From positions 156,806 to 180,805 of the forward strand of contig JBHLKY010000003.1 in NCBI GenBank assembly GCA_048886185.1: 24,000 bases of DNA. Reading direction: 5' to 3'. The stretch is from Candidatus Hermodarchaeota archaeon (lineage in GTDB: Archaea > Asgardarchaeota > Heimdallarchaeia > Hodarchaeales > Hodarchaeaceae). This document shows positions 11,232-22,911 of the stretch, in pieces. The number at the start of each line of letters is the position of its first letter. Position 1 is the first letter of the stretch. The position numbers were made by a program, and so were the translations under genes. The notes under the pieces are model-generated. The model had not been told where the DNA came from and searched no databases. It saw nothing but the letters and a program-made list of their open reading frames with translations.

Positions 11232-11334
11232 TGGGCCCACCCGGATTTGAACCGGGGATCTTTTCCTTAACATTTGGAACAAATGTTATCTCGGTTATCA
11301 GCCGAGCGCTTTAACCAGGCTAAGCCATGGGCCC
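11232..11334 (-). tRNA. tRNA-Ile (anticodon GAU) with a ~28-nt insertion between the anticodon stem and T stem (putative non-canonical intron)
   Basis: Reverse-complement fold:
- Acceptor GGGCCCA/TGGGCCC with discriminator A.
- D arm GCTT-AGCCTGGTTA-AAGC.
- Anticodon arm CTCGG-CTGATAA-CCGAG.
- T arm CCCGG-TTCAAAT-CCGGG.
33 nt lie where a 5-nt variable loop is expected, including a perfect 8-bp hairpin AACATTTG-TTC-CAAATGTT. No CCA is encoded. Confidence 0.8.
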
Positions 11335-22029: not shown

Positions 22030-22245
22030 CTATTTGCTTATGCAATTCTTTGTGTTAGATTACTCGAGTAGGTAGAATGATTTGGGGTTATAAGGATTGT
22101 TGGTTTCTATCATACGCCTTCCTTTTTTACATTGAAATTATGCAAAACCTGACTGACATCAATAAGTGATTTAGTAGAAACGTTGTTTTTTAAGATAAAT
22201 CAGGATTTAAAGGATAACAGAGATCCCTTGGATGCTGAAAAAGAA

Positions 22246-22436
22246 CGCCAGGGGAGGGATTCGAACCCTCGAGTACAAAAAGTACACTGGCTTTCTGACA
22301 CAGGTTATAATTCCTTAATGACTCAAGGCCAGCGCCTTACTACAGGGAAATGGGAGACCATTAACCCATCCACTTGGCTTTCGAATTGTAATACTCCATG
22401 GAGATTTAAAAGTGAAAGTATCTACAAAACCCCGGC
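22246..22436 (-). tRNA. tRNA-Ser (anticodon UGA), apparently interrupted by three introns
   Basis: Reverse-complement fold:
- 3' part is clear: T arm GAGGG-TTCGAAT-CCCTC, 3' acceptor CCCTGGC with discriminator G, and a long variable arm GTAC-TTTTT-GTAC (class II).
- Anticodon stem CTGGC...GCCAG encloses CTTGAG plus ~29 extra nt (canonical 37/38 intron).
- D-arm halves GCC-AAGTGG and TAAGGC are split by ~30 nt.
- The only complementary 5' acceptor, GCCGGGG (one G-U pair), lies ~49 nt further upstream.
Total length is 191 nt, giving a mature tRNA of ~83 nt. I did not verify BHB motifs at the splice sites. Confidence 0.6.
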
Positions 22437-22461
22437 AAAACGGATAGTTAATGATTTATTA

Positions 22462-22911
22462 TCATGTTTTATAGTCGTACATCACAATTGTTCCACCAAT
22501 AGCTACAATAGTCAGGATGATTCCCATGATTAATAATGTGATGGATGTCCTTGCATCATAAGCGAATCGTGTAGAATAACGGATTAAGTAAAGGCCTCCT
22601 GAACCTATACTGAAAAATAGGCCTGCTATTAAAGATTCTACTAAGAATTGTTCACTTGAAGATTGAAAAATTGGTACAAGTTGAGTGGCCGTCTGTCCCA
22701 TCGGTAGTGGTTGTTCTGTAACATCGTAAAGTCCACCAGCTAGAATGAATACAGTTGCAACGAGTATGAGGGCCAAAATATATTTATGGGGTGCTTCATA
22801 GGGGAGTTCGATATCTGGAATCCTAAAATCGATTGTGGGCTTTTTAAGGCCTGGGATCCATGGAAGTCGTTGTGGATTTTCCTTAATTCTTTCAGGTTGC
22901 TTTTTTGACAT
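22462..22911 (-). CDS. Hypothetical membrane protein (basic N-terminal tail, 3 predicted TM segments)
   Basis: 149-aa ORF with an ATG start, ending 25 nt before the inferred tRNA-Ser 5' end. Hydrophobic segments are ILALILVATVFILAGG, LIAGLFFSIGSGGLYLI and LLIMGIILTIVAIGGTIV. No family recognised. Confidence 0.55.
   Translation of the reverse strand: MSKKQPERIKENPQRLPWIPGLKKPTIDFRIPDIELPYEAPHKYILALILVATVFILAGGLYDVTEQPLPMGQTATQLVPIFQSSSEQFLVESLIAGLFFSIGSGGLYLIRYSTRFAYDARTSITLLIMGIILTIVAIGGTIVMYDYKT

Follow-up and report, generated by a model that had tools for sequence, protein, structure and literature searches.

A tRNA-Ser(UGA) gene with three predicted endonuclease-type introns in a Hodarchaeales archaeon

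We describe an interrupted tRNA-Ser(UGA) gene on the minus strand at 22436-22246 of the window (the whole 24,000-nt stretch of DNA that was analysed, C3:156806-180805 of the genome), 191 nt long from G1 (22436) to the discriminator G73 (22246). Comparison with related genomes makes it probable, at about 0.88, that this gene is functional, the sole one of its kind found in the genome, and interrupted by three endonuclease-type introns whose splicing would leave an 85-nt class II tRNA. Each of the three junctions, once spliced, matches the sequence of intron-less orthologues, and the boundaries taken from these orthologues assign 106 of the 191 nt to introns and 85 nt to the mature tRNA.

The genome (G000) is a Hodarchaeales MAG of 4.84 Mb in 75 contigs, 96% complete. 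Its closest relatives by uS7 (82-93% identity) are MAGs labelled Hodarchaeota, Heimdallarchaeota and Promethearchaeota, including Candidatus Hodarchaeum mangrovi and B3_Heim. Among archaeal orders, Hodarchaeales have been put forward as the nearest to eukaryotes.

The gene and its flanks

The gene is laid out as GCCGGGGT (49 nt) AGCCAAGTGGAT (28 nt) TAAGGCGCTGGCCTTGAG (29 nt) AGCCAG-TGTACTTTTTGTACTC-GAGGGTTCGAATCCCTC-CCCTGGC-G, then TTCTTTTT, where parentheses hold the introns. Its parts and neighbors are listed here in window coordinates (BHB, bulge-helix-bulge).

22437-22448, minus strand: 5' leader, ACUAUCCGUUUU, conserved and adjoining +1
22429-22436, minus strand: exon 1, GCCGGGGU, the 5' acceptor strand (1-7) and U8
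22380-22428, minus strand: predicted intron 1, 49 nt between U8 and A9, BHB motif
22368-22379, minus strand: exon 2, AGCCAAGUGGAU, with A9, the 5' D-stem strand and the start of the D loop, in which G18 and G19 lie
22340-22367, minus strand: predicted intron 2, 28 nt in the D loop (about 20a/20b), HBh'-type motif
22322-22339, minus strand: exon 3, UAAGGCGCUGGCCUUGAG, with the rest of the D loop, the 3' D-stem strand, G26, the 5' anticodon-stem strand and C32 to G37
22325-22323, minus strand: anticodon UGA, within exon 3
22293-22321, minus strand: predicted intron 3, 29 nt at the canonical 37/38 site, relaxed BHB motif
22246-22292, minus strand: exon 4, with A38, the 3' anticodon-stem strand, the variable arm, the T arm, the 3' acceptor strand CCCUGGC and G73
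22238-22245, minus strand: T-rich tail, UUCUUUUU, directly after the discriminator, a putative transcription stop judged from sequence alone
22183-22533, plus strand: 116-aa antisense ORF, spurious, overlapping the 3' end of the protein gene at 22462-22911

Exon 1 pairs with CCCUGGC at 22253-22247, including the pair G4.U69; an earlier note on the window had seen this distant 7-mer pair with the 3' acceptor strand through one G-U, and had placed the ends of the gene where we place them. Exon 4 forms a T arm, GAGGG-UUCGAAU-CCCUC, and a long variable arm, GUAC-UUUUU-GUAC (a GUAC/GUAC stem with a 5-nt loop). The long variable arm, the UGA anticodon and a G73 like that of the Ser(CGA) and Ser(GGA) genes of the same genome are all traits of class II tRNA-Ser. 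CCA is not encoded.

ARAGORN calls the spliced 85-mer, with corrected boundaries, as tRNA-Ser(tga). It called no tRNA in the unspliced window, and its whole-genome run with introns allowed missed the tRNA-Ser(UGA) gene. Rfam at the gathering threshold likewise missed it, the sole match in the window being the tRNA-Ile at 11232-11334; in E-value mode the 3' half of the gene alone was matched, at 22.6 bits against a cut-off of 29. In its minimum free energy (MFE) fold the 191-nt precursor has the complete set of tRNA helices, namely acceptor, D and anticodon stems plus the variable and T arms, and each of the three inserts projects as a side hairpin; the energy is -59.7 kcal/mol, compared with -48.2 +/- 4.4 for shuffles (z = -2.6). 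G+C content is 59% in the exons, 35% in the introns and 33% in the window.

A leader box, (A/C)C(C/U)AUCC(G/A)UUUU, precedes +1 in most copies of the genus, with or without intron 1; its role might be that of a promoter or initiator, of a processing signal, or of a terminator for the upstream gene. The product of that upstream gene (window 22462-22911, minus strand) is 149 aa long, ends ...MYD(Y/F)KT*, has predicted membrane segments and matches no Pfam family; in every copy of the genus the gene immediately precedes the tRNA. The 116-aa antisense ORF, which the earlier note had called almost certainly spurious, has no Pfam match and is open in the window genome only, with stops in all three antisense frames of 20 of the 20 other copies.

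Splice junctions and intron variation among relatives

Among 61 related genomes searched, the interrupted gene was found at the same locus in 20 of the 21 genomes of the genus, a recurrence well beyond chance, with one Ser(UGA) match per genome except for a tandem in G012. We parsed 21 related copies from about 20 genomes into exons and introns; 20 are functional copies and the other is a pseudo-copy from G012. When the class was searched with the spliced sequence, six tRNA-Ser(UGA) genes without introns turned up, all in other Heimdallarchaeia families. The sequence of their 5' halves is GCC(A/G)GG(A/G)TAGCCAAG(C/T)GGA(C/T)(T/A)A(A/C)GGCGCTGGTCTTGAAAACCAG, and through junctions 1 and 2 they run ...GGTAGCCAAG(C/T)GGA(C/T)TA(A/C)GGCGCTGG...

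Junctions were set from intron-less relatives, independently of any splicing motif, and then compared with standard BHB geometry, in which the 5' bulge takes in the final two bases of the exon and the first of the intron, the 3' bulge the final two of the intron and the first of the exon, and a 4-bp helix H separates the bulges, flanked by helix h' on the inner side and helix h on the outer side. As a control that preserves relatedness, either splice site was slid by 1-3 nt in 13 copies (intron 1) or 20 copies (intron 2). Nearly all slid registers of introns 1 and 2 gave a mean H of 0-3.0. In shuffles of the locus the motifs used for introns 1, 2 and 3 arose at per-site rates of 0.00065, 0.0041 and 0.0017. 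A de novo BHB scan of the locus is unspecific by itself, with 44 hits against 36.6 +/- 7.9 in shuffles; the BHB test is informative at independently fixed boundaries only. MFE folding was considered as proof of the motifs and rejected: the optimum is a cloverleaf bearing intron hairpins, and enforcing the BHB conformations in its place costs about 15 kcal/mol for intron 1, 8.6 for intron 2 and 6.6 for intron 3.

Intron 1 is taken as the 49 nt between U8 and A9 because seven related copies (L005b, L008, L009, L010, L012, L014 and L019) are contiguous there, reading GCCGGGGTAGCC (= GCCGGGGTAGCCAAG; GCCGGGGT-AGCCAAG). Its H pairs C3G4G5G6 with UUCG (4/4), between bulges GU↓U and AA↓A (arrow, splice site); h' has 6 bp (UUGUAG/UUACAA) and h has 2 bp (G1C2/G10C11). 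H is 4/4 in 12 of 13 functional copies, while its intron strand varies (UUCG, CCUG, CCCG, CUCG), with 8-9 of the 9 distinct copies paired at each position. The true register has a mean H of 3.9/4 and the motif in 13/13 copies. Two slid registers also pair at 3.8-3.9, since the acceptor strand has a G run along which the site can shift, but they form h' in just 1-2 of 13 copies, as against 13/13 for the true one. The motif occupies acceptor bases 1-6 and G10/C11 and therefore competes with the acceptor and D stems. Intron 1 has thus probably been cut by the time the 3' acceptor strand is made or folds, and an intron at 8/9 may impose co-transcriptional or ordered splicing.

Intron 2 is absent from the six intron-less orthologues, where GCCAAG(C/U)GGA(C/U)UA(A/C)GGC is uninterrupted. 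Because these six read so, the D arm is 17 nt (GCCAAGYGGAYUAMGGC), with the disputed A(C/U) exonic; intron 2 is therefore 28 nt (22367-22340) and the mature tRNA 85 nt. The motif has H = GUGG/CUGU (4/4, with three G.U pairs in the window genome), bulges AU↓G and AG↓U, and a 2-bp h' (GG/CC); there is no contiguous h, the D stem following after a 2x2 loop. All 20 functional copies parsed have H at 3-4/4. Pair types differ at each H position (U.G, C-G and U-A at H2, for instance), and the intron strand is variously CUGU, CUGC, CUAU or UCGU. The ortholog-defined register, with a mean H of 3.8/4 and the motif in 19/20 copies, is the clear maximum of 49 registers.

Intron 3 occurs in every copy of the genus and is absent from the six orthologues of other families, whose anticodon loop is uninterrupted. 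Its motif is relaxed: H = CUUG/UCAG is 3/4, with U34 unpaired, the bulges are AG↓U and AA↓A, h is the anticodon stem extended to 8 bp, and h' has 3 bp. Over 20 copies the mean H is 2.5/4, with 9/20 at H >= 3 and h' >= 2, and U34 is unpaired in 16 of 19 distinct copies; h' covaries (C-G/U-G; A-U/U-A/C-G/U-G). Such a motif falls within the hBH and relaxed classes accepted for (alpha-beta)2 enzymes (PMC4090602, PMC5829648). The G after CUUGA and the A before GCCAG are invariant in the genus and their intron-side neighbors vary, which gives the loop as CUUGAG↓A and position 37 as G; G37 is also seen in a Ser(GGA) gene without introns from the sister family. An alternative register (H = U33-A36, 5' site +1) has a higher mean H, 2.9 vs 2.5, yet was rejected because it would give an 8-nt anticodon loop and keeps h' in fewer copies. 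Splicing at 36/37, leaving A37 as in other families, was rejected too: it gives no H helix, and G37 is invariant in the genus.

With these junctions, most of what the earlier note had read from the window alone is borne out. It had proposed three introns removed in cis, which agrees with the junctions fixed by intron-less orthologues, the BHB motifs in register and the presence of splicing genes; its 49-nt intron between position 8 and the D stem is the one lacking in seven related copies, and its 29-nt intron at 37/38 the one lacking in the six orthologues. Its D-loop intron was rightly placed but, at ~30 nt, too long: it has 28 nt, with the 5' end 2 nt further 3' (GTGGAT↓GGG...). The gene length of 191 nt holds, with an intron total of 106 nt in place of ~108, and the ~83-nt mature tRNA gives way to one of 85 nt. 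BHB motifs at each junction had been suggested as a check; at the ortholog-defined junctions introns 1 and 2 can form them with 4/4 central pairs and intron 3 in relaxed form (3/4).

Purifying and compensatory selection acts on the exons, which are better conserved than introns, with mean identities to the window copy of 100, 87, 92 and 91% for exons 1-4 and of 63, 73 and 65% for introns 1-3; exon 1 shows no variation among the parsed functional copies of the genus. The T stem has a double compensatory swap in L020/L029 (GAGGG/CCCUC to AGGGG/CCCCU), and pair 4:69 is G4.U69 in the clade of the window genome and G4-C69 elsewhere.

The intron set differs within the genus. Introns 1+2+3 are found in 12 parsed copies from 11 genomes, including the window genome; G001 and G016 likewise have 1+2+3, and the additional named record L029 matches G001. 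Introns 2+3 alone occur in G011, and six genomes have 2+3+4. All four introns are present in one gene in G007 (L004) and G003 (L006). On a poorly resolved tree of three neighboring proteins, the 1+2+3 and 2+3+4 gene types need at least 2-3 changes. The fourth intron (29-32 nt, in the T loop at 59/60) was seen in L004, L006, L005b, L008, L009, L012, L014 and L019, and has a full hBHBh' motif, with H 3-4/4, h' of up to 9 bp and the T stem as h.

In G012 (C266, L005) two Ser(UGA) copies stand in tandem about 60 nt apart. The syntenic 1+2+3 copy is degenerate, with a 5' acceptor strand GCTGGGA and its 3' acceptor strand replaced, and is followed by an intact 2+3+4 copy with a different leader. The arrangement looks like gene replacement caught in progress, and a decaying 1+2+3 copy beside an intact 2+3+4 copy would point to whole-gene replacement or recombination as a way in which intron patterns change. 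That the Hodarchaeum-like genus is a further, undescribed hot spot of tRNA-intron turnover is a tentative idea, which we think rather doubtful.

Splicing genes, tRNA complement and alternative readings

Two EndA ORFs, which between them cover C8:47026-47280 and C8:79836-80096, were found in the genome, each with PF01974 and PF02778. One, alpha-like, is closest to PDB chains 3P1Z_B, 3AJV_B, 2CV8 and 2ZYZ_B, which we take to be catalytic subunits of crenarchaeal heterotetramers; the other, beta-like, is closest to 4FZ2, 5X89 and NEQ261, presumably structural units. The alignment of the alpha-like ORF covers the Crenarchaea-specific loop, GKPVGIRKPKSPRFDRP, and sets a Lys against chain position 44. 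This loop is conserved among TACK and Asgard archaea alike, and its residue K44 is described as conferring broad substrate specificity (PMC5829648). The pair fits an (alpha-beta)2 enzyme, with its assembly and specificity predicted from these similarities; this EndA type has been linked to non-canonical and multiple introns (PMC4090602). RtcB is also encoded (534 bits).

In the pathway that we propose, a precursor of ~191 nt would be transcribed with introns at 8/9 (49 nt), ~20a/20b (28 nt) and 37/38 (29 nt), and each exon-intron pair would fold into a bulge-helix-bulge or a relaxed HBh'/hBH motif. A two-subunit (alpha-beta)2-type EndA would cleave in both 3-nt bulges, RtcB would ligate the four exons into an 85-nt class II tRNA with G37 and G73, and CCA would be added after exon joining. 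We infer transcription, splicing, splicing order and methylation of G37 from the sequence.

We searched the 96%-complete MAG for a second Ser(UGA) gene, another check suggested in the earlier note, by exon BLAST and by an anticodon-arm/T-arm pattern that requires an intact T arm, and found none beyond chance AT-rich matches. Two more Ser tRNA genes were found, both ending in G: Ser(GGA) at C8:87232-87349 and Ser(CGA) at C3:85533-85668, which has one intron at 37/38 and another at 59/60, the latter of the type described above as the fourth intron. In eight conserved window genes, 34 of the 130 Ser codons are TCA. Because TCA is common and the other Ser tRNA genes found read other codons, tRNA-Ser(UGA) is needed.

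Interrupted tRNA genes appear to be common in this genome, as the earlier note had suspected in calling the lineage rich in unusual tRNA processing: 24 of 33 tRNA gene candidates with an intact T arm exceed 90 nt and 9 of 33 exceed 125 nt. The genome-wide ARAGORN run that permitted introns yielded 32 tRNA genes, of which several are miscalls; 23 Rfam tRNA matches reached the gathering score. That standard finders miss an essential Hodarchaeales tRNA gene means that the tRNA complements and codon-reading capacity of these MAGs are under-called.

Several further observations were made on the tRNA complement. Some interrupted tRNAs are miscalled by ARAGORN, for instance as tRNA-Pyl(cta) or Tyr(ata). 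Very long candidates lie at C3:182111-182309 (199 nt), C3:54060-54222 (163 nt) and C3:46450-46608 (159 nt), with others at C3:133930-134061, C8:75302-75431, C11:94667-94801, C8:148504-148636 and C29:31130-31264; the very long candidates probably carry two or more introns each. The one at C3:46450-46608 was considered as a Ser gene (it shares the acceptor strand GCCGAGG), but from its anticodon loop GAA it is most likely tRNA-Phe(GAA). The tRNA-Ile(GAU) gene at window 11232-11334 (minus strand; Rfam 61.8 bits) has a 29-nt insert in the variable region, the interruption to which the earlier note had drawn attention, and a strict BHB scan of it yields 3/4 motifs only.

CCA is not encoded in 28 of the 33 tRNA gene candidates. 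A search for the archaeal class I CCA-adding enzyme (TIGR03671, PF09249) gave no match in this genome, and matches in just 2 of the 21 from its genus and 1 (sub-threshold) of the 12 from family f5, as against 28/31, 12/12 and 3/3 genomes of families f3, f4 and f7. ORFs of the class II PolyA_pol type occur in 18 of the 21 genus genomes and in 11 of the 12 from f5; side loci for this observation in the window genome are C5:41348-41725 (plus strand) and C12:5864-6232 (minus strand). Class II CCA-adding enzymes seem to have been reported for Asgard archaea in a 2026 preprint (bioRxiv 10.64898/2026.05.29.728689).

Other readings of the locus were weighed against this one. Intron 2 might instead be 30 nt (AUGGG...GUAG), which would leave an 83-nt tRNA with a 15-nt D arm. 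ARAGORN also accepts that 83-mer, and the paralogous Ser(CGA) of the genome does have a 15-nt D arm, GCCAAGAGGAAAGGC. In the six intron-less Ser(UGA) orthologues, however, the D arm is uniformly 17 nt, the disputed A(C/U) is conserved in every copy of the genus, and moving the 5' site of intron 2 by -2 drops the mean H to 1.9/4 with the motif in 0 copies, against 3.8/4 and 19/20 for the 28-nt intron; we consider the 30-nt version very unlikely. Group I or group II introns were also considered and rejected, the inserts being 28-49 nt long and no Rfam intron family matching in the window or at the locus.

It is highly improbable that the gene is a decaying pseudogene, or that its D-loop or 8/9 inserts are never removed, with a working tRNA-Ser(UGA) encoded elsewhere. 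Standard tools do leave the gene uncalled, the degenerate tandem copy of G012 shows that copies can decay, and another Ser(UGA) gene could sit in the unassembled 4% of the genome or have a form that evades the scan. Against this stand exons conserved with compensatory changes over about 20 species while the introns drift, BHB motifs kept in register, the frequency of TCA codons, and the search results, which give no other Ser(UGA) candidate here and a single match in each genus genome bar G012. A split, trans-spliced tRNA, in which the upstream GCCGGGGU is coincidental and the true 5' exon comes from another locus, has precedents in Nanoarchaeum and Caldivirga (PMC4090602), and exon 1 is short (8 nt). 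The spacing of this 8-mer is nevertheless conserved, and a BHB links it with exon 2, in 13 functional copies as well as the pseudo-copy of G012; in seven same-locus copies the two exons directly adjoin, and the four exons are colinear within 191 nt. BLAST with exons 1 and 2 found no other plausible 5' half for Ser(UGA), the sole good match being Ser(CGA), whose acceptor strand GCCGAGG pairs with its own 3' end. The chance of a split gene is thus close to negligible, and a functional cis-spliced gene with introns of 49, 28 and 29 nt is the reading we retain.

Comparison with known systems

This kind of feature is already described from other Asgard classes and from Thermoproteales, and the Ser(UGA) locus adds a clean, comparison-defined case of three BHB-type introns, one of them at 8/9. 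The split and tri-split genes of Nanoarchaeum equitans and Caldivirga maquilingensis (PMC4090602) resemble it in their endonuclease and ligase chemistry at BHB-like junctions and in having break points at intron positions; they differ in that the four exons here are colinear on one strand, so that trans-joining is unneeded.

In the Thermoproteales, tRNA-Pro(UGG) of Pyrobaculum islandicum has introns at 25/26, 37/38 and 56/57 (Sugahara 2007, cited in PMC4090602). As there, one canonical and two non-canonical BHB/HBh' introns share one cis gene in the window genome, alternative precursor folds are needed (compare the 3/4 intron in the acceptor stem), and an (alpha-beta)2 EndA with the specificity loop would be at work, its assembly here being predicted. 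The phylum differs, as do the intron positions 8/9 and ~20a/20b.

The earlier note had held multi-intron tRNAs to be best known from Thermoproteales, which overlooks the published Asgard cases: there are Asgard archaea that have inserts in 92-95% of their tRNA genes, as many as five in a single gene, including some in the D arm that tRNAscan-SE misses (PMC11291895; bioRxiv 10.64898/2026.10.13.758758). Several Heimdallarchaeia lineages have fewer than one insert per gene according to the main text of the latter, in which Hodarchaeales are not named. Our gene shares with the published Asgard tRNAs several short (~20-50 nt), often non-canonical introns per gene, D-arm inserts missed by standard annotators, BHB or relaxed BHB boundaries, two EndA paralogues in the genome, and intron presence that varies among close relatives. 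It differs in lineage, belonging to Hodarchaeales within Heimdallarchaeia, and has three introns, with four in two congeners. The gain and loss of archaeal tRNA introns were left open in that work (bioRxiv 10.64898/2026.10.13.758758), and the same locus with two, three or four introns in one genus provides a natural series for both.
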